From positions 1-60,251 of IMG/VR virus record IMGVR_UViG_3300009160_000004: a DNA stretch of 60,251 bases; one strand, 5' to 3'. Position 1 is the stretch's first letter. Each line of letters opens with the position of its first letter. The position numbers and the translations under genes are program-made. The notes under the pieces were generated by a model, which worked only from the letters and a program-made list of their open reading frames with translations, was not told where the DNA came from and ran no database searches. This document shows positions 3,593 to 34,700 of the stretch, piece after piece. Source of the stretch: a virus (lineage: Duplodnaviria > Caudoviricetes).

Positions 3593-4198
3593 TTATCTAG
3601 CCTGCGAGCCCAACTCTTGCAGCAATTCCTCTAGCGAGGGATGACGGCCATGCTTGCCAAAGAATTCTGCATCTGCCGGAGACACGTAGGGTTTCCCAGA
3701 GAGGACTGCCGCGGCTGGCCTTGCTAGGAGACTTCCGCCCTCGTCGGCACGCAGCCAGTTGAATGCGTCTGGTGGCGCCAGGTGCCTTGCCCGCGTTTCG
3801 CCTAGTGGGTGGATCGCCACCGGGAAATACGCATCGGGCGCCCGCTGTTGTAACGCCATCATTCTTCCGCGACCCTCATGCCCACGCACTTGCCAGTTGC
3901 CGTCCTTGGACTTATCGACGTACAGGACTGGCGTGCCTATCGGCTGGCCATCGTCCAGCGCCTGCAAGATGTGATCTATCGGGCGCGTCGAAAGGTCGCG
4001 CGGAGGATTGACTTGCAGGAACCTCTTGGGTTGCATGTAGGCCATGAACCCGCGATAGTCGATGTTGCTAGCATCGGGGATTCCGCCAAGTCCGCTCGCG
4101 TTATCGAACTGCACGCCGGCATGCACTCGCGGAGCGCCGGCTGTTATTTCGCCCACACGCTGGATCAGCTTATCTAGCCGCGTAATTGGGTTAGCCAT
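3593..4198 (-). CDS. ParB/Srx-like domain protein
   Basis: PVLYV...WQVRGHEGRGRMMAL resembles the ParB-N GxxR motif. Confidence 0.45.
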   Translation of the reverse strand: MANPITRLDKLIQRVGEITAGAPRVHAGVQFDNASGLGGIPDASNIDYRGFMAYMQPKRFLQVNPPRDLSTRPIDHILQALDDGQPIGTPVLYVDKSKDGNWQVRGHEGRGRMMALQQRAPDAYFPVAIHPLGETRARHLAPPDAFNWLRADEGGSLLARPAAAVLSGKPYVSPADAEFFGKHGRHPSLEELLQELGSQAR

Positions 4199-15422: not shown

Positions 15423-15772
15423 TGAGTGAACGAACAAGCCTTGGACTGTCGGCCGATGCTGTTGTCGCGGTGCGAAAGCGGCGGCTGGGTACGCTGCCCT
15501 TTGCCTTGGCTTTGCGATGCTGCGATATCGGAGAAGCCCAAAGCAATATGGGCACCGTGTACCTGACAACGTGGGGTCTGAATCTTTCCGCCACCGATCA
15601 GGAGTGGTTCGTACGCGAGACGCAGTTCCACCCTATCTGGATGGGCGCCGATGACGGTAGCTGTGAATTGATACTCGGCACCACTCGCGGCGGAGGTGCC
15701 ATGATTGATTGGGTTATGGATGGGTTGCGGCTTGGAGAAAACCCTGCATGGGAGGAGATAATCGATGGCTAA
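15422..15772 (+). CDS. Hypothetical early protein
   Basis: Coupled ORF with SD. Confidence 0.65.
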   Translation: MSERTSLGLSADAVVAVRKRRLGTLPFALALRCCDIGEAQSNMGTVYLTTWGLNLSATDQEWFVRETQFHPIWMGADDGSCELILGTTRGGGAMIDWVMDGLRLGENPAWEEIIDG

Positions 15773-16001
15773 GAAACGTGAAGGGAAAACCACCGCAGAG
15801 GCGTTCATTGCTGCCGTCATGCGGCATCGTGACGGGACGATCCAGAACATTGCCGATGAGCTGGGTGTCACCCAGCAGGCCGTGAGCAAGCGACTGCGGG
15901 AGTACAAGGAACGGGGGGTCACGGGGCTCCCCGTATTCAACGGCCGGGTGGTGGATGTGGATGACGTTCAGAAGATGGTCAATAAACACAGGGGGAAGTG
16001 A
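15765..16001 (+). CDS. Helix-turn-helix DNA-binding protein
   Basis: TIQNIADELGVTQQAVSKRL. Confidence 0.85.
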   Translation: MAKKREGKTTAEAFIAAVMRHRDGTIQNIADELGVTQQAVSKRLREYKERGVTGLPVFNGRVVDVDDVQKMVNKHRGK

Positions 16002-16903: not shown

Positions 16904-16974
16904 GCGAGATGGCTGACTTCTGTGTTGGTTCCCTGGTTGTCCTTGCCTTCCTCTGGTGGAGTTCCCTTGCATGA
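16900..16974 (+). CDS. Small membrane peptide, 24 aa
   Basis: GGAGG SD; ATGA overlaps at both ends; hydrophobic. Confidence 0.55.
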   Translation: MSEMADFCVGSLVVLAFLWWSSLA

Positions 16975-17729
16975 AACTGTATCTCTATGGCCGTGTCTCA
17001 ACGGATGATCAGCAGACATCGGCCGATGCTCAGTCGGTCAGGCTGCGTGAGTTCGCTGAGAAGTCTGGCCTGGAGATGGGCGGGGTGTTCGTGGATGAGG
17101 ATGTCTCCGGCAAGATCCCCCTCCAAGAGCGACCCAAGGGGAAGGAACTGTGGAATCTCATCCAGCCTGGGGATGCCATCGCATTCACCAAGGTAGATCG
17201 TTGCTTCAGATCCTTGGTAGATGCTGCCTCAACCTTGGAGAAGTGGAAGCTCATGGGCATCCGGGTCCATATCCTGGACTTAGGGATCGATGTGAACACG
17301 CCGGCCGGAGAGTTGTTCTTCTCCCAACTGGCAGCGTTCGCACAGTTTGAGCGGGCCATGATCGGACTGCGTGTGCGTGAGGCCCAGGCCCACAAACGCC
17401 GCACCGGCAAGCCATACAACAAGACCCGCCCTATCGGATGGCGCAGGCAGGGCGACTGCTATGTGCCCCTGCATTCCGAGCGGAAGCTGGCAGAGAGAGT
17501 CATCGCTTACCGCGACCGTGGCGAGTCGCTGCCCCGGATTGCTTTGCGTCTGTGCAAGGAGAACATCCGGAGCGCTGACGGCTCTTGGCTTCGCCCCTCC
17601 GAAGTACGGCGGCTGGAGATCGCGGGGCGAGCCGGATATCCAAGGATTGCGAGACGGTCCTTGCAAGCCTCTGTGCGGACATGCTCGCCACCCGGATCGG
17701 GATCTGATGCTCTTCCGACAGAGACCTGA
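16971..17729 (+). CDS. Serine recombinase (resolvase catalytic domain plus short DNA-binding extension)
   Basis: YGRVST..Q, SG...ERP, KVDRCFRS and FAQFER motifs. Confidence 0.92.
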   Translation: MKLYLYGRVSTDDQQTSADAQSVRLREFAEKSGLEMGGVFVDEDVSGKIPLQERPKGKELWNLIQPGDAIAFTKVDRCFRSLVDAASTLEKWKLMGIRVHILDLGIDVNTPAGELFFSQLAAFAQFERAMIGLRVREAQAHKRRTGKPYNKTRPIGWRRQGDCYVPLHSERKLAERVIAYRDRGESLPRIALRLCKENIRSADGSWLRPSEVRRLEIAGRAGYPRIARRSLQASVRTCSPPGSGSDALPTET

Positions 17730-18144
17730 GTGTCATGCCGTGCATAAAGCGGTTGAACGCCATCTCCTGATCGTCCTCTGGCAACTCTTCAATCGCCAGC
17801 CGCAGATGATCTAGCTCGTCGTATTCCGGCATGCGATCAGCAGCGTCAGCCAAGGAGATGCGGTTCTCTCTTGGCGTGCGGGTCGCCTTCTTAATGAACT
17901 TCAGCATCCCATTGAGGATGGCCCGAGCGAAGTAGGCTTTCGGATACGGGAGTCTCTTGGGATCGTACGTCCGTGCGGCCTTCGACAAGGCGAGGAACCC
18001 CTCCCCCTCCAGGTCGTCAACGTACAGAGAACGCTGCCATTGCGGGCGGTTCTGGACGAAGTACCTCGCCAACATGTGGACGAGGTCCAGGTAATCAGTG
18101 ACTAGGCGCTGCTTTGTCTTTGAGAGTTTTGATCTCTTGCTCAT
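17500..18144 (-). CDS. Sigma-70 family sigma factor (FliA/WhiG-like)
   Basis: Region 2 DDLEGEGFLALSKAARTYDP; region 4 LPEDDQ...GMTLRSLS. Confidence 0.85.
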   Translation of the reverse strand: MSKRSKLSKTKQRLVTDYLDLVHMLARYFVQNRPQWQRSLYVDDLEGEGFLALSKAARTYDPKRLPYPKAYFARAILNGMLKFIKKATRTPRENRISLADAADRMPEYDELDHLRLAIEELPEDDQEMAFNRFMHGMTLRSLSEEHQIPIRVASMSAQRLARTVSQSLDIRLAPRSPAAVLRRGEAKSRQRSGCSPCTDAKQSGAATRHGRGKR

Positions 18145-18322
18145 GTACTTCCAGCCGAGCCTCATGGTCGGCTAGTGTTTCTTTCAGTTCTTCAAACATC
18201 TCAGGCATGCGTTGCACCGTGTCGGCAATCACCGCAACTTTTGCGTGGATTGAAAACGCCCACGGAATCACGGCCGCACAAGCCGAGATCACAAGCATCC
18301 AGAATTCTGCGTCAACGCTCAT
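18095..18322 (-). CDS. Membrane protein with coiled coil (holin-like)
   Basis: N-terminal TM segment, then HEARLEVHEQEIKTL. Confidence 0.6.
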   Translation of the reverse strand: MSVDAEFWMLVISACAAVIPWAFSIHAKVAVIADTVQRMPEMFEELKETLADHEARLEVHEQEIKTLKDKAAPSH

Positions 18323-27191: not shown

Positions 27192-27282
27192 TCTTCTCCT
27201 CCTTGGTAAACGTCTCTGGGAAAACATGCGGGATGTCAAACACCTCCCGCACCACAGAATCAACTAAGTCTTGCTCGCTCAC
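26953..27282 (-). CDS. Possible overlapping hypothetical protein
   Basis: GGAGAG SD and protein-like N-terminus MSEQDLVDSVVREVF, but heavy overlap with the next gene. Confidence 0.3.
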   Translation of the reverse strand: MSEQDLVDSVVREVFDIPHVFPETFTKEEKNEKEGHVRPNFWRRLCSLLSAPFRRAVVSPGDSKPRAADDGGQEPGLGKERNCWRPPNPAALREGAVSGASGSGRHAGA

Positions 27283-28291
27283 GGCGTTCTCTCTCCTTAC
27301 GAAACAGGTTCTTTACCCAGCCTTCCCGCAGGTCACGGCAGGCCCAGTGGATGTAGCCATTCGTTAGCTCCGACATCTTCATGCCGGCGTACTTGCCCTT
27401 CAGAGGGTTGAAGTAAGTGCCGACGCACCGCGAACCGGCGCCAATGTCAAACTCTCGGCGGCGAATACTTCCAGACGCCTGCCCCCTAGTGGCGGCGCGG
27501 CGGGCTTCGATCTCCATCGCCAACTTCCGCTTGGCCTCTTCCTCCGCCCGCAGGGCAGCAAGCTCCGCCTCCGTCAACGGGGACTTGGCCTCGGCGGCAC
27601 GGCGCTTCACTTCCTTCACAACCTCTGGCCCTGCCTGGACGAACATGTCCACGGCCGTGACGAGGCGGTGATCCAGGCTGGCATCGGTGCAGTCAACAAT
27701 TTTGAAGTGCGGCTTGGAACTCTCGGCTATGCGTTGCCGGCGGAGGTCGGCGGTTGAGCCTTGGAAATCGACTACTCCCGGCAAGGGACGAGTAGCGCGG
27801 CCAACGCATTGGAGCCAGAACGACCGTGACCGCGTCGGCCTGCCCAGGATCAACGTGGCTGTGGGTGGATAGTCAAAGCCCACGGCGACCACCTGACAGT
27901 TGACGAGTACTGGCACCTCGCGTGACTTAAACCGGCGGAGCGCCTCCCTGCGTTCATCCTCGTCCTGCTTGCCATGCACATAAACTGACGGAATTCCGTA
28001 GTTATTGTTGAGGTAATGACACACCCCAGCAGCCGCAGCCACGCCAGCGGTGAACACCACAGTCTGGCCTTCCATCTCTTCCTTGGTGATCAGGCAGATT
28101 CGCTGAAGGTTTGCTTCTTTGACCATCTCATCAGCCAGTGCAGATTGTTTGAAGTCGTCGCCTACGATTGCTATTCCGCTGAGATCCAGGGAGGCAACCT
28201 TGGAGATGCGACAGACGGGAGGGACGGACCATCCGTTGTCAATTGCCCATCGGAGGTCGTAGTTACACAAGGACTCGTCGTAGAACTGCAC
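27260..28291 (-). CDS. SF2 helicase, C-terminal half (motifs IV-VI)
   Basis: TVVF, VHG, LVNCQVVAVGFDYP, QCVGRATR. Confidence 0.88.
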   Translation of the reverse strand: MQFYDESLCNYDLRWAIDNGWSVPPVCRISKVASLDLSGIAIVGDDFKQSALADEMVKEANLQRICLITKEEMEGQTVVFTAGVAAAAGVCHYLNNNYGIPSVYVHGKQDEDERREALRRFKSREVPVLVNCQVVAVGFDYPPTATLILGRPTRSRSFWLQCVGRATRPLPGVVDFQGSTADLRRQRIAESSKPHFKIVDCTDASLDHRLVTAVDMFVQAGPEVVKEVKRRAAEAKSPLTEAELAALRAEEEAKRKLAMEIEARRAATRGQASGSIRRREFDIGAGSRCVGTYFNPLKGKYAGMKMSELTNGYIHWACRDLREGWVKNLFRKERERRERARLS

Positions 28292-28776
28292 AGTAAACCC
28301 CTCCCATCCATGCGAAATGGAGTCGCCGTAAACCCAGCCACCATCGCCCCGTCGTGTTGAAAGTAACGCAACATCTCAACCACCGGCTCACTGCACATCA
28401 GGTGAGCCTCGTCCACAATCACCAACTGAAAATCACGGAACCGTTTGTATCGCGGCTCCCCGCCCCGCCGGCTGAGTAACGTCTGCTTCGATGCGACAAT
28501 CACCTTGCTGGGGTAATCCTCTTCAGCGTGGAAGTTAGCCATCTCCACATCAGGATCAGACTCTGTGATGTCCCGCACCTTCTCAATCGCCTGCCAGACA
28601 AGCTCACGCATCGGGCAGATGATCAACGTCCGACCCAGAATCCGTGCAGCCAATGTGACAAAGATCACTGTCTTGCCGGCACCCGTGAACAGGCCGTTGA
28701 GCGTGGAGGTAACACCACGATCCATGGCCTGTAGGTTGGCGGTCACGATCTCTTCTTGGTAGTCGCGTAGTTCCAT
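28171..28776 (-). CDS. SF2 helicase, N-terminal half (Q motif, I-III)
   Basis: LRDYQ, TGAGKT, DEAH, TATP; coding frame changes near 28295. Confidence 0.9.
   Translation of the reverse strand: MELRDYQEEIVTANLQAMDRGVTSTLNGLFTGAGKTVIFVTLAARILGRTLIICPMRELVWQAIEKVRDITESDPDVEMANFHAEEDYPSKVIVASKQTLLSRRGGEPRYKRFRDFQLVIVDEAHLMCSEPVVEMLRYFQHDGAMVAGFTATPFRMDGRGLLCSSTTSPCVTTTSDGQLTTDGPSLPSVASPRLPPWISAE
28294..28300 (-). other. Candidate -1 frameshift slippery heptamer G GGT TTA
   Basis: In-phase X XXY YYZ; a -1 slip joins the two helicase halves. Confidence 0.5.
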
Positions 28777-29163: not shown

Positions 29164-29799
29164 TTACGCCTCAACTTTCTGAAAGGTGTCATCAAACTTC
29201 TTCTGGATCCGTTCCAGAACCGCCTTCGGGCATGCCTTCTCCAGAACCCTCTGCTTCACCAACGAGACGACCTTCTTGGCCTCGTCCACGCTCTTGGCTT
29301 CCGCAAGTGCCTTGGTCGCCTTGCTCTCAATCTCCATCCCCTTGGTGACAACATCCGCCTCCGACGAGCGGGCCGTGTGCTGCACGGAGTTGCCGTCGTC
29401 GTCAGCCTCGCCGGAGAAACCTCCAGTGAGCGCCATGAGGAGCGTCCGCTTGCCATATGTCATCGCCGCACCGAAGCCCTGCATGTCGCCCTTCGGATTG
29501 ACAAGCGGAGCTACTCCAGAGATGTACTGCCCGCTGCTATGTCGGAGCGTGCCGACCAGCACCCACTGCGAGCCTGCGAGACCAGGACGAAAATCGGGAA
29601 GCGCAATCCCGTTCTTCGTCAGCGGGCCACGCAGGGACTCGCAGCATTGAGCAAACGAACTGAACTTGCTCCTGAAGTGCGGGTTCGCACTATCCAGAGC
29701 AACGGCCTGATACTCCGATTGAGCCTTGGCCAAAGCCTTCGTCAGTTCAGCCGTCTCCGGCGAACTACTTGGCCCAAGAATGAACTGGTTATCAATCAT
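29164..29799 (-). CDS. erf: ERF-family single-strand annealing protein
   Basis: NPHFRSK, QGFGAAMTYGKR, DDDGN. Confidence 0.9.
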   Translation of the reverse strand: MIDNQFILGPSSSPETAELTKALAKAQSEYQAVALDSANPHFRSKFSSFAQCCESLRGPLTKNGIALPDFRPGLAGSQWVLVGTLRHSSGQYISGVAPLVNPKGDMQGFGAAMTYGKRTLLMALTGGFSGEADDDGNSVQHTARSSEADVVTKGMEIESKATKALAEAKSVDEAKKVVSLVKQRVLEKACPKAVLERIQKKFDDTFQKVEA

Positions 29800-30644
29800 A
29801 GAAGCACCTCCTCCTTCTTCTGTGCCCACGGCGGAATCACTAACTCCGTGATCTCGCCAAACGTCGCGGGCGTGTAGATACCCGTCTCCCGTCGCAACCG
29901 AACTTCCTCCATGACTCGTTCCATCCGCCGGCCGGCTTCCTCAACCACTTCCTGTGGGAGGTAGAAGACTTGGCAGTCGAACGGCGGGACGCTGTGGACA
30001 AATACGAACGGCATCCGGAAGTGATCCATGCCCATCGCCATCGCGGCACGGACATACAACCACTCCTGTTCCGCATAGCCGTAGTCAAAGACGCTGCGGT
30101 ACAGCGCGTCCCACGGTGCGGAGGTGGACTTCAAATCCCACCAGTAGTCCTCTGCACAACCGTCCGGCCGCACCTTCACGCGGTGGCCGTTGAGGTCAAA
30201 GAAGACAGAGACCTGAGTCTCAACCGTCTCCTTCACGCACTTGCGTGCTGCGGGGTTCGCAAGCAGGGACTCCGCCATCGTCCGGAGTTTGAATGCGTAC
30301 TCCTCGTTGCACGGGATGCGACCGCTCGCGATGCACTCCGCCTCAAACTCCTTGTAAGCCTTGGTGCCACGCCGGCCGTCAACGCCCAGCACATCAACCG
30401 GGGCAATGGCCAGGAGCTTGTCCATCTCCCTGCCGTCGCAAATCTCCATGACGAGCGTGTCGAAGTCGGAGCCCAGGCTGGTGGCGCTGTTCCCCTCAAA
30501 GATTCTGTGGCCAAGGTCCAGCCACCTTTGAGCGAATCCACCACCCTTCAGTACCGCGACAAAAAAAGACCGCGAATCGAAATCGTTCTGTGCGAAGTAG
30601 TCGGCGTTCGCCATGCCGACAACCTTCCTTGGCAACGTGTCCAT
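29796..30644 (-). CDS. RecE-like exonuclease (PD-(D/E)xK, DUF3799-like)
   Basis: ETQVSVF, KVRPD, DLKST, YGYAEQ; adjacent to erf. Confidence 0.85.
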   Translation of the reverse strand: MDTLPRKVVGMANADYFAQNDFDSRSFFVAVLKGGGFAQRWLDLGHRIFEGNSATSLGSDFDTLVMEICDGREMDKLLAIAPVDVLGVDGRRGTKAYKEFEAECIASGRIPCNEEYAFKLRTMAESLLANPAARKCVKETVETQVSVFFDLNGHRVKVRPDGCAEDYWWDLKSTSAPWDALYRSVFDYGYAEQEWLYVRAAMAMGMDHFRMPFVFVHSVPPFDCQVFYLPQEVVEEAGRRMERVMEEVRLRRETGIYTPATFGEITELVIPPWAQKKEEVLL

Positions 30645-30654
30645 ACGTTCACTC

Positions 30655-30960
30655 CTATTTCTTAGACCGAATCCTTTGCAAACGGCGGTAGGCGGCGATG
30701 AAATCGCCAAGCTGTCCCAAGGCCAGCAGGGTCAGTGCGAAGCCGGACCAGCGAAGAAAAATGAAGGTGGTCAGCGCGGCCAGATAGGCGGCGCTAAGAA
30801 TGGGGTAGTCACGGGAGAAAACCCCTGCCAGCCATGCGTAGACAACTGAGCTACGCGCGCGATTGGGGGGGGTTGAATCCACTTTGTTGATGGGTATCTT
30901 CCCCGCCGTTAGGGCTACACCATGAGCCTCCTGCAACTTGTCGAACTGTACTGCTGTCAT
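30655..30960 (-). CDS. Possible membrane protein spanning the candidate attP
   Basis: Hydrophobic C-terminal half; stop overlaps the AGGAG SD of the exonuclease gene; start uncertain. Confidence 0.3.
   Translation of the reverse strand: MTAVQFDKLQEAHGVALTAGKIPINKVDSTPPNRARSSVVYAWLAGVFSRDYPILSAAYLAALTTFIFLRWSGFALTLLALGQLGDFIAAYRRLQRIRSKK
30836..30860 (-). other. Candidate attP core carrying tRNA nucleotides 1-18
   Basis: GCGCGCGTAGCTCAGTTG; inverted arms around a 7-bp spacer; 61 nt from the integrase start. Confidence 0.7.
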
Positions 30961-31743
30961 GTTGGGGCCTCGCTGGGCTACCGCTGGCAGTTGATCGTTC
31001 TCGTCCGACGCCTTCCGTGGACGGTCACCGATTTGACCGTGCCCCAGATCGACGCCTACCTCACCAAAGCGCTGGAAAAACTTTCTCCAGCAACTGTCCA
31101 AAACCACCGCAGGATGCTTGGGACTCTCCGGAGATTCGCTCTCCGGGAGAATCTTGTGGTGGATCAATGTACACGCACGCTCCGCCGCGTCAAGACGATC
31201 TGCCCCAACCCGATTGCGTGGACCCAAGCGGAAATTTCGCACTTGGTGGAGGTCGCCCGCGAGATGCCGGGACGCACGGCCTACTGCAACCTGTGCGAGG
31301 TGCTGCCGGCCTACGTGATCGTGGCGTACACCACGGGGCTGCGAGCCGGGGATATGCTTGCGATCCGCCATGATCAGATTCGGGGTGACCGACTCTCCTT
31401 AGTCATTCGCAAGACAAACACGCCGCATGTGGCTGTGCTGACCGAGCAGTGCCTCGCCGCCATCCATGAGCTTCCCAGGCGAGGCGGGCGTATCTTTGGC
31501 GATCTGATCCCCTGCCGTCAACTCTCACGGCATTTTCGCCGCCTAGTCCTGCGGGCCGGGATGGCCGGAAGTAGCAAGTTTCTGCGGAGATCCAGCGCGA
31601 CTTTCGCTGAATTAAACGGGATAGACGCCACTGGACACCTGGGACACAGGACGGCCCAGATGAAAAGGCACTACGTCGATATGGCGATCATGTCGCAAAA
31701 TCGACGGGCCGTTCCCCCGCTAGAACTGGTTCACCACTCCTAG
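30922..31743 (+). CDS. int: Tyrosine recombinase / integrase
   Basis: TGLR, K, KFLRR (HxxR variant), LGH, HY. Confidence 0.9.
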   Translation: MSLLQLVELYCCHVGASLGYRWQLIVLVRRLPWTVTDLTVPQIDAYLTKALEKLSPATVQNHRRMLGTLRRFALRENLVVDQCTRTLRRVKTICPNPIAWTQAEISHLVEVAREMPGRTAYCNLCEVLPAYVIVAYTTGLRAGDMLAIRHDQIRGDRLSLVIRKTNTPHVAVLTEQCLAAIHELPRRGGRIFGDLIPCRQLSRHFRRLVLRAGMAGSSKFLRRSSATFAELNGIDATGHLGHRTAQMKRHYVDMAIMSQNRRAVPPLELVHHS

Positions 31744-34700
31744 CATCTGGAGCGGATCCAGGTTGGCCTTCTTCTTCTCGCGAGCCCGCTTGGCGGCTTC
31801 GCTCTGGATGATGCGGTACAGCAAAATTTGTTGCTGTTGCTCACGCGGCATGGCCCGCAGGACATCTTCCGGAACGGTCAGGTTTTCGTACGTCCGCACC
31901 CCGGGGGTCGTGGAGAGCAAGTCGTTCAACGTCGCCCGCGCAGCCTTCTGCTTGCTCTGTTCGCGGTCGTAGTCGGTGACCTTTGCCCCAAGCGTATTGT
32001 TGATGAGCAACTTCAGCGCACGTTCTGTCGGGGAGAGTCGGTTGTCTCGCAGTGTGCGGTAGATCGAATTCAACTTTGACCCACCGGGAACGAAGTTGAC
32101 CGCAAGCTGTTCAATCGGCCGACCAATCGGCCCCAAGTCTTGCTCCAGCACAGAATACAGATCGGACAGTTCTCGGCCGGTATACAACTGGCGATTGAGG
32201 ATCATCTCTAGCGGCGCTTTGATGACCGGGTTGAGCTGCCCAAGAAGGTTCATGCCCGTGCGGCGAGCAGTGTCGTACGCCCGCTGGGGGAAAGTGTTCC
32301 CAACGCCGGGTGACACAAGGTTGACGAGCGACTCATAGGGGAGATCGATGTTCGTCAGGACTCGCTGGAGGTTTTCTGTCGGAGCGCCTGGGATCTGGAT
32401 CGAAGCACTTTGCCGCAGATACTCTGGCAGAAAGGAATCTTCCGTTTGCTCTGACCCCCGGTTGATGGCCCGCATCGTTTGGCCCTGCAAGCCGCCAGGG
32501 CGGTACAGAAGGTTCTCTGCAACCAGAGGCGCGATGCCGCGCGGGTAGGAGTAGAACGGGATAACCGTCTTTAGCTTTCTCTCAAAGTTGGTGTACGCCT
32601 GCGGAGAGTAATCCACCTGCGTGCGCAACACATTCTCTGCCGCAGCGTCTGGGTTGGCGCCTTGCCGCACCATTTCAATCCAATTGCCGATACGGTTGGC
32701 GTCTTCCACTCGCTTGCCAGCACGCTCATGCAGACGCAGTAATGGGTTGAGGGTTTCGGATGGGGCCTGCCGGCCGGAGGCAGCGCCAGCAAAATCGACC
32801 CCTCGCACCGCCCCGAGACTGGAGAGCCAGTTCCTCCAGGTTCGCTTTGGGTCATAGACTGCCCCCTTTCCAAACAGAACCGGCTCTTGCGTCTCCATGC
32901 CGGGAACGATGTTGCGGGTCTCGGCAGCGCCCTCTTCGATAAGGCCACCCCCCAATTTGCCGCGTGCCATGTCAGCAAGCGCAGTCTGGATCAGTTCTTC
33001 CGGATCAGTAATGTGCTGGTAGCGAGGTGCGTTACGAAGCCTTTGGTACAGCCGTTCGTAGTTGCCAGCGCCAACATCGACGCCGGCACGCATGGAGAAA
33101 GCAAGCTCTAGGGGGCTTGCCCCACCACGCATGAGCGAGGCAAGGTAGCCCGAATACAAGTTGCGGGTGTGGTAGGCCGGGTTCGCCAGTGCGCCGATCT
33201 TAAAAGCATTGGTAAACGAGCGGTACACATTCCCCAAGAGCGAGGACGGGTCTGCCTTAGGAAGCGGCGAGATCGCCTGGAGGTCTTTGATGACTGTCTC
33301 TGGGATAGACAGTTCGTCAATGCTCCGGCCAGACAGCCGCGACTCCAGCACCTCCCGCAGGCGCGTCTTGTCGAACCCCAAGCCTTCCGCTGCCTTCAAA
33401 AGATTGACCGCTCCGCCGCCCGTCATTTGGTCTGCCGGGATGTCAGAGGCTGCGCGAGTAAACGTATCTAGGATGACGTTGGCGTTGGCCTCGCTGCGGC
33501 CACCCCCTACGCCGTACCGCATTAAATCGTTGAGCGTGGAGTTGTCGAACAACCCGAGATTATTGGAAGCGAACTGCCTGTCGGCCGTGCGGAGAAGGTC
33601 GCCTAGCTGGACCTTCATGCGGCTAGAGTTTTGCAGCAGACGGTCCAGTTTGCCTTGCCCAGCCTTACGGTCGGCCGCGACCAGCGTGGGGTCCGACAGA
33701 TAGGCACGGATGGATTCGATGGTATTGCCTTCGCGGTCGGCCACCCGTTCATAGGGAAGTTCGACCGGCGAGCGGCGAAGGTTGTAGACATCATCGCGGC
33801 GCAGCGTGTTGAACGCTTCGTCAATGATGCTTGGGATCTGGTCATCGCTTGCACCGTACAGCCTGTCGCGCAACGCGGCTCCGGCATCGCCGGCCATCAA
33901 TCGCCGCAGTGTTTCGGAGCGGCGATCCAAATCCAAATATGGATTGCGGGAACGGCCCACAAGATCGCTGACCGAATACACGCGCTGGCCTCGGTCGTAC
34001 GCCGACTCCGCACGCCCCAACTTCCCTGGAGGCAAGGGAGCAGATTGGTCAGTGGCGAACCGCACGGCCTGACTGGGGAAATAGCCAGTGTCGTATACGC
34101 TGGCGGCGTTTGGGGTTTGCAGCCCAAGGCTGCTGCGTCTGGTTTGAGCGTCGGCTAACTGATCTCGCAGCCATGAGCGATAGTCGCTCCACGCAGGAAC
34201 AGAATCGATTAGCCGCACAGCTTCTTGGTCCACTAGATTGGCCATGCGGCCTGGGTCTAGTTGCGCTTCGATTGTGTCTCGGAGGGCATTCTGCACACGC
34301 GGGTTGGCAAAGGGCAGTGCCCCATCCGGTTGCGCTGCCGTGGCCTGCTGCCACTGCCACGCCGCACTCTCGCGCAAATTCCGCTCATTGGCCTTGGCGT
34401 CGGCAACCGCTTGCCGTGCCCGCCATTGGTCATCGGGATCCAGTCGCTCTAGCACCGTTGGGTCGAATGCCCGCGTCATGCGGTTAACTACTGGCGCCGT
34501 GTATGGGTTGCGCTTTAGATCGTCTCCAAAGCGGTCTAGCGTCCTGCCAACAACCTTGGCGGCGTCAACTCCCAAGAGAGTGCCACTCTCAAATCCAGGG
34601 ATCCTGGCCTCGGCCAATCCAGCGAGCGGCTGATCCAGCAGGGCATCCATATCCAAGCCCTTGCCACGCGCAGCCTGCGAGAAGCGTTGGGCGGCGTCGG

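Follow-up and report, generated by a model that had tools for sequence, protein, structure and literature searches.

A segment of 25–32 bp at 30829–30860, lying beside the gene of a 273-aa tyrosine recombinase (Int), is proposed here as the attP core of that enzyme, with a probability of about 0.7. Its sequence suggests an attachment site of the 5′-restoring kind, in which the phage would carry the beginning of its target tRNA gene. The proposal builds on four observations, namely sequence identity with tRNA starts, conservation of the site, the pattern of tRNA fragments across the Int family and the fold of the recombinase. The window, i.e., the whole stretch of 60,251 bp that was analysed, is the record of a complete virus with direct terminal repeats, and the metagenome runs containing this phage sequence are of freshwater or lake origin. 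The genome encodes terminase, portal and structural/tail proteins as well as a leftward recombination/replication operon (exo VIII-like nuclease, Erf and helicase), and int is placed between this operon and the last tail gene. The features around the site are as follows.

29164–29829, minus strand: Erf-like single-strand annealing protein, encoded together with the exonuclease in one operon (profile match)
29796–30650, minus strand: exonuclease (PDDEXK, exo VIII-like) of the leftward operon (phrog_412, 4.2e-34)
30655–30960, minus strand: small membrane-protein ORF running through the site, probably two-helix, start uncertain
30829–30860, minus strand: 32-nt block invariant in the window, L157, L159 and L160, in a region otherwise about 78% identical
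30836–30842, minus strand: right core arm TCTACGC, the inverted left arm (6/7), not tRNA-like, invariant in close relatives
30843–30849, minus strand: predicted overlap (strand-exchange) region TCAGTTG, tRNA positions 12–18, at the dyad centre
30843–30860, minus strand: tRNA identity block, exact tRNA positions 1–18 (acceptor 5′ strand, U8-A9, D-stem 5′ strand and start of the D-loop)
30850–30856, minus strand: left core arm GCGTAGC, tRNA positions 5–11
30861–30921: 61 nt separating tRNA position 1 from the int ATG, more diverged than any other part of the region, with no sigma-70-like promoter
30922–31743, plus strand: int, 273-aa tyrosine recombinase, ATG at 30922

On the minus strand, where tRNA position n corresponds to 30861 − n, positions 30860–30836 read GCGCGCG-TA-GCTC-AGTTG and then TCTACGC. 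A preliminary description had taken the first part for the 5′ end of a tRNA, and the 18-mer at 30860–30843 is indeed an exact copy of tRNA positions 1–18. The resemblance stops there, as had been claimed; ARAGORN found no complete tRNA in the window (0 tRNA genes in 60,251 bp). The coordinates and complementarity of the 7-bp spacer TCAGTTG and of its arms GCGTAGC/TCTACGC (6 of 7 inverted) were also confirmed, as was the distance of 61 nt to int, with the int ATG at 30922 and tRNA position 1 at 30860. The arms can alternatively be read as GCGTAG/CTACGC, a perfect 6-bp repeat around 9 nt. Taken alone, these elements are not significant. The simple-site layout of 6/7 complementary arms around a 7-bp centre is present, and by simple arithmetic a 6/7 inverted repeat with a spacer of 6–8 nt is expected about once per 270 nt. 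The D-arm 11-mer matched once against 0.26 matches expected, with at least one match in 24 of 100 shuffles, and the hairpin of the site was no more stable than those of shuffled sequences (z = −0.41). The site stands above chance because of the exact 18-mer at tRNA +1, the conservation in relatives and the family-wide pattern.

The conservation was evaluated in a viral contig and four metagenome contigs, the five close relatives, all of which follow the window colinearly through the site and none of which is integrated. The 32-nt block is the longest invariant stretch in the 360 nt aligned with L159 and L160, and its int-side edge falls exactly at tRNA +1, positions 30861–30862 already being different. 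In addition, a more distant variant from metagenome run X7 changes 30835, 30827–30828 and 30862–30866 and leaves 30836–30860 untouched. The small ORF through the site is taken as a real gene because its protein is kept despite many third-position changes, which were seen downstream of the block. The block itself contains an 11-codon stretch without one silent change, which implies a constraint on the DNA itself. The candidate attP probably lies inside a small gene, for which profile searches returned no family match. One candidate start of this gene, GTG at 30882, is not conserved; the ATG/GTG at 30960 is conserved and overlaps, on the opposite strand, codon 13 of int. Moreover, the frame antisense to int (30922–31371, minus strand) is open for 247–295 codons in the window and three relatives, which may be a by-product of G+C-rich coding or may mark where the small membrane protein really begins.

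The 18-mer was then sought in one genome per species, where at least 120 stretches were found. In 117 of the 120 matches listed, the 18-mer ran straight into a tRNA D-arm as read by eye, and nearly all of these 117 continued as a tRNA-like remainder after the D-arm, also by eye. Genes that begin with this 18-mer thus exist, as the preliminary description had asked to be checked. Its label of a tRNA-Arg-like start held in part: among the matches listed, Arg(CCG) anticodon loops were found in Gemmatimonadaceae and Arg(ACG) loops in Acidobacteriaceae and Thermoleophilia, and the same 18-mer is also the start of tRNA-Ile(GAT) in records under the labels Pirellulales, Planctomycetaceae or Kuenenia and of various tRNAs in candidate-phyla bacteria. 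The three non-tRNA genome matches (L044, L076 and L085) have no phage genes nearby and were taken as chance occurrences. One further match, L121, has a normal D-arm and leaves tRNA sequence at the anticodon loop, where an intron or insertion is possible.

The same arrangement was found throughout the Int family. Homologues of Int formed 174 clusters at E ≤ 1e-10, many of them on contigs of 55–63 kb, and in none of the 120 clusters listed does the longest contig exceed about 63 kb. A profile built from 20 Int members yielded 71 IMG/VR loci. The motif T[AG]GCTCA[AG][CT]TG was present in all 57 loci whose Int is 44–95% identical, on the strand opposite to int and 45–121 nt upstream of its ATG; no other match occurred in 478,141 bp on both strands. 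The motif is preceded by the heptamer GCACCCC, GGGCAGC, GGGCAAC or, as in the window, GCGCGCG. A tRNA 5′ segment from +1 is carried by the window and by 57 of 57 relatives. Across these 57 loci, positions 1–18 occur in 5 variants and positions 19–32 in 31, and the identity to tRNA ends at position 18 in 14 loci, never earlier, and at 20–26 in the others. The few variants of the left half, which is held to tRNA sequence, and the many of the free right half are as expected of an attP whose left side has to equal its target gene, and they put the predicted crossover within the D-loop, no further than position 18. The right halves, read by eye, have TA at positions 21–22 in nearly all sites, and in many sites they mirror the acceptor bases, giving a dyad centred on position 15.

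Two of the alternative starts could be assigned to tRNAs. The GCACCCC start opens complete tRNA-Arg(ACG) genes, and the GGGCAAC start opens a tRNA-Val(CAC) in a Pirellulales MAG (G008) that also carries the 18-mer of the window as a tRNA-Ile. No complete tRNA starting with GGGCAGC was found, and a scan of viral contigs yielded 0 cases of the Val-type start running on into a full D-arm. Judging from these fragments, the family appears to have switched among at least three tRNA targets. A 118-kb viral contig (G444) holds two different family members about 57 kb apart (L185 and L233, near 3980–4045), each with its site in attP form. The second site of this contig shows a fourth acceptor type, with TG at positions 8–9, and a perfect 7-bp inverted repeat around TCAATTG.

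More distant relatives carry another part of the tRNA. Where Int is 27–34% identical, the 5′ motif was found in 0 of 13 loci. Instead, L229 and L230 hold, at the same place and on the same strand, the part of tRNA-Gly(CCC) from the anticodon loop to the 3′ end, as a 52-nt block common to these otherwise different phages (L229 3770–3845). Similarly, L218 and L221 hold a 3′ part of tRNA-Met at the same place and strand, and L222 and L223 have the same upstream flank. Since distant kin carry 3′ fragments at the same spot, the region upstream of int is taken as the att region of the wider group. By sequence, the subfamily of the window differs from these kin in holding the other end of the tRNA, and the att polarity may have flipped in the history of the family.

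The recombinase itself was characterised by alignment and structure prediction. The catalytic residues of tyrosine recombinases are R, K, H-x-x-R, H/W and Y, and R141, K164, R222, H242 and Y251 are invariant in the 20 aligned members. K219 occupies the place of the first His in all 20, within an invariant K219-F-L-R222-R223, which bears out the earlier remark that KxLRR stands in place of HxLR. The PF00589 score of 23.8 bits lies below the curated cut-off of 27.1, although many homologues carry a PF00589 match and phrog_1 integrase is matched at 1.8e-18. The Xer models gave 18–26 bits, the NCBIfam models 20–26 bits against cut-offs of 220–335, a profile search of PDB sequences with Int gave 0 matches, tblastn of Int against GenBank phages gave none, and a protein atlas placed Int relatives in viral clusters only. 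The AlphaFold model (pLDDT 88.7) was matched by Foldseek to XerA, Tn1549 Int and residues 75–356 of lambda Int (probability 1.00, E about 1e-9, query-normalised TM-score of up to 0.66), and further to XerH, IntI and Cre. The model indicates a short two-domain recombinase with core-binding and catalytic domains, in line with the compact 273-aa integrase first described. Lambda-type integrases combine an N-terminal arm-binding domain with arm sites in an attP of roughly 250 bp. With 273 aa and a fold match limited to lambda Int residues 75–356, this domain is lacking in the model, as would fit a compact site.

In the phage genome, neither a repressor nor an excisionase was recognised, the search having yielded a small HTH protein at 15765–16001 and nothing else of this kind. 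The genome also encodes a second recombinase at 16956–17729 (plus strand), a 257-aa small serine recombinase with a Resolvase domain (3e-33) and weak XisF/invertase-like matches; its ORF overlaps by about 230 nt with an opposite-strand ORF at 17500–18165 (minus strand) that matches sigma-70 region 2. The serine recombinase may act in inversion, resolution or integration. The helicase of the leftward operon is present as two overlapping ORFs, 27260–28291 and 28171–28776 (both minus strand), which match consecutive parts of a PHROG helicase profile, 271–424 and 428–654. A frameshift or a mistake in the assembly may account for this, or the gene may truly be split.

Taken together, these data suggest the following course of integration, in which the exchange itself, the cut positions, and the tRNA and host used are inferred. 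The partner site would be the 5′ part of a host tRNA gene with the first 18 bases GCGCGCGTAGCTCAGTTG; the likeliest target is tRNA-Ile(GAT) in Pirellulales (Planctomycetota) of fresh water, with a tRNA-Arg as the alternative. The imperfect inverted arms, one formed by tRNA positions 5–11 and the other by their phage-made mirror image, would be occupied by a pair of recombinase molecules, and strands would be exchanged within the 7-bp TCAGTTG, i.e., tRNA positions 12–18 in the D-loop. The DNA on the int side would then provide tRNA positions 1–18, so that the gene would be rebuilt next to int and read away from it. The host promoter and the original first 18 bases would be moved to the far end of the prophage, in front of the small-ORF/exo/erf operon.

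An element that restores a tRNA from the 5′ side must bring a promoter for the rebuilt gene. Among 43 distinct flanks of the relatives, 25 have a hexamer with at least 5 of 6 matches to TATAAT ending 9–16 nt before +1, compared with 0 of 43 in a control window, and by eye the flanks resemble the upstream regions of planctomycete tRNAs. No such promoter is supplied in the window: in its clade the best −10 hexamer matches 3 of 6 bases, and 0 promoter-like sites were found in 30600–31100. The missing promoter is the main internal weakness of the proposal for this phage, since expression of the rebuilt tRNA from the 61-nt spacer is unexplained.

Integrated copies were sought at several levels. No integrated copy, attB, attL or attR was found in the sampled genome collections or in the contigs of the metagenome runs. 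Across 30311–31768, no loose end or joint was found in the contigs of four metagenome runs, a form of data that drops rare variants. A complete tRNA of the junction type was found in 0 of the 71 family loci, and int, exo, erf or the small ORF lay near the 18-mer in 0 of 120 tRNA loci among the matches listed. Family-level Int was absent from 401 Pirellulales-order genomes (best identity 38%), from 401 Alphaproteobacteria genomes, from 50 genomes with the 18-mer and from 26 planctomycete genomes with matching tRNAs. Prophages with a homologous int flanked by 5′ tRNA duplications, which the preliminary description had named as a check, were thus not encountered in the genomes and loci searched. 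Either lysogens are rare or unsampled, or the recombinase module does something else. The proposed D-arm crossover with 5′-restoring integration accordingly keeps the backing of the 5′ fragments in 57 of 57 loci and of identities ending at position 18 or beyond, and lacks junctions and a promoter in the clade of the window. Also weighing against the attP reading are the apparent position of the site within a coding sequence, the inverted repeat and hairpin that are unremarkable when taken alone, and the failure to recognise a repressor or excisionase.

Several candidates for junctions were considered. The ARAGORN tRNA call in L229 was rejected as a junction, being a 3′ fragment in a complete phage, and G444 (118 kb) and G445 (82 kb) were rejected as host-flanked prophages, their sites being in attP form. 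On an 18-kb viral contig (G856), L253 (9521–10524) encodes an Int 27–33% identical that reads away from a complete tRNA-Arg(ACG) 104 nt off. This case is ambiguous between a rebuilt junction and a phage-borne tRNA. Its flank has a motif like that of the family's int-side flank, and a Cro/CI-type HTH gene lies beyond the tRNA, on which side 1.3 kb of sequence is present. The Pirellulales Int homologues (at most 38% identical) lie next to tRNAs in 4 of 32 loci, mostly in classical arrangements. At L274 (8150–9328, G008:C173), a 372-aa homologue 34% identical to Int lies 245 nt upstream of a tRNA-Ser(GGA) with an atypical 5′ half (83 nt with the anticodon at position 32, vs. 87 nt and position 35 in other planctomycetes); a different element may have its hybrid att junction in this tRNA-Ser. 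A triple 19-mer in G1154 was set aside as ordinary tRNA genes plus a pseudo-copy. In the same genome, at L276 (2825–3126, G1154:C51), an intact tRNA-Arg(TCG) gene is preceded at a distance of 225 nt by a truncated copy, which has a duplicated upstream region of its own.

Other explanations of the site were weighed against these results. Int might act on phage DNA only, resolving dimers or concatemers in the manner of lox or dif, so that the tRNA likeness would be an ancestral relic. The short Int with a fold closest to Xer-type/core-type recombinases, the compact invariant site of 25–32 bp and the failure to find an integrated copy, together with the location of all homologue clusters listed on phage-sized contigs, would fit such a role. 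However, a relic would decay, and positions 1–18 match tRNA starts exactly in every clade, the fragments switch among three tRNAs while the right half drifts, the edge of conservation lies exactly at +1, and in distant kin the place is taken by tRNA fragments of the classical 3′ type. We therefore regard resolution of phage DNA as an unlikely sole function. It is still somewhat less likely that the phage has captured a host tRNA promoter to drive its leftward early operon, with the fragment as the first transcribed part and with no role for it in recombination. The −10-like hexamer 9–16 nt upstream of +1 in 25 of 43 flanks, the resemblance by eye of these flanks to planctomycete tRNA upstream regions and the position of the fragment ahead of the small-ORF/exo/erf operon agree with a captured promoter, but the clade of the window has the fragment and no such promoter. 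Furthermore, a leader would have no need of a tRNA identity that runs to position 18 and stops there, many sites have a right arm that mirrors the acceptor bases (by eye), and the fragment adjoins int in 57 of 57 loci.

The missing promoter in the window also raises the question of whether a working attP exists that restores no working tRNA in this clade, the loss being tolerated, covered by another gene copy or offset by read-through from inside int. The lack of a promoter-like site between int and +1 and the tRNA-like stretch of only 18 nt, the minimum of the family, would be explained in this way, and the available part of a study of mycobacteriophages describes tRNA integration without rebuilding (PMC10865867). 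Those phages, however, compensate with a tRNA gene of their own, and no tRNA gene is present here; moreover, exact identity from +1 would be pointless without a rebuilt gene. Such a non-restoring site is accordingly judged improbable, and the 5′-restoring attP is the reading kept in what follows.

The host was approached through the tRNA starts and through Int. By itself, the 18-mer, which had been put forward as a handle for host prediction, is ambiguous, as it occurs in records whose labels span many phyla; joined with the fragments of the relatives, it points to Planctomycetota. A degenerate pattern for these fragments matched 26 of 301 Planctomycetota genomes and 0 of 201 Alphaproteobacteria genomes, the two groups sampled. 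Distant Int homologues (at most 38% identical) were found in 63 of 401 Pirellulales-order genomes, and an Int homologue was present in 3 of 50 genomes with the 18-mer, all three labelled as planctomycetes. From these sequence comparisons, Planctomycetota would be the likely host phylum, a placement in which we have modest confidence. The sole label among the NCBI-sourced homologues, a Caulobacteraceae MAG, probably does not name the host; it is doubted because the Int family was found in 0 of 401 and the tRNA starts in 0 of 201 Alphaproteobacteria genomes.

In its general layout, the site resembles well-known attachment sites. The integrases of P22, P4, HP1 and Ms6 reportedly (Williams is said to have treated them in 2002) use a 3′ identity block and exchange strands in the anticodon loop, in the T-loop or at the 3′ end. 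As in those systems, a tyrosine recombinase gene lies here beside an attP that copies part of a tRNA and ends at the gene boundary, and the predicted exchange falls in a loop between partly symmetric sequences. In contrast to them, the opposite end of the tRNA is copied here and Int has no arm-binding domain. The P22-type use of the 3′ end is also seen in the distant Int kin with their tRNA-Gly and tRNA-Met fragments. The Xer/dif and Cre/lox systems (XerA 5hxy, XerH 5jjv and Cre 1nzb) share with the present one a two-domain protein of about 270–300 aa and a compact site with inverted arms around a 7-bp centre. Unlike in these systems, one arm is dictated here by the tRNA, and the sequence similarity of Int is far below the family cut-offs.

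Integration at the 5′ side of tRNA genes has precedents. In the part of the text available, PMC6563490 describes 5′-distal integration as known but infrequent and cites for it Zhao and Williams 2002 and several archaeal proviruses and plasmids. As far as they are described there, these integrators share with the present family an attP with the 5′ part of a tRNA from +1, a 5′ fragment as the displaced piece and, in most relatives here, a promoter-like element before +1. The present case differs from that description in the predicted D-loop exchange (positions 12–18), in the identity of 18–26 nt, in belonging to tailed phages of about 60 kb and in having no integrated example. For mycobacteriophages, the portion seen of Guerrero-Bustamante and Hatfull 2024 (PMC10865867) reports a phage replacement tRNA gene where integration does not rebuild the host gene. 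This tRNA-dependent lysogeny, to the extent set out there, resembles the present system in tRNA-gene integration and a short common core, and differs from it in that the present phage lacks a tRNA gene and carries a copy beginning precisely at +1. The filters of the Islander paper, in the section available, allow for 5′ fragments. In the main texts covered by our literature search, no D-loop, 5′-restoring phage family and no such phages of Planctomycetes were described.

At the level of the family, the results suggest a large group of uncultivated freshwater phages of about 60 kb, probably of Planctomycetota, whose short, divergent recombinase with Lys in place of His would target the D-loop of a tRNA gene and rebuild its 5′ end. 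Most members would bring a tRNA-type promoter with them, at least three tRNAs would serve as targets, and the group would form a class outside those that use the anticodon loop, the T-loop or the 3′ end. For this wider picture we see a little better than even odds.

The usual argument for the 3′ side is that 5′ restoration needs a promoter of its own. If integration occurs as proposed, this would be the first well-populated bacterial phage family to restore a tRNA from the 5′ side by exchange in the D-loop, and it would make it possible to test directly why the 3′ side of tRNA genes is the one used by nearly all elements. The family would also provide a compact integrase with a pair of sites of about 30 bp and natural variation in specificity of the Ile, Val and Arg types. 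To our knowledge, very few phages of Planctomycetota are known, and at least about 60 orphan lake phage genomes would thereby be linked to this phylum.
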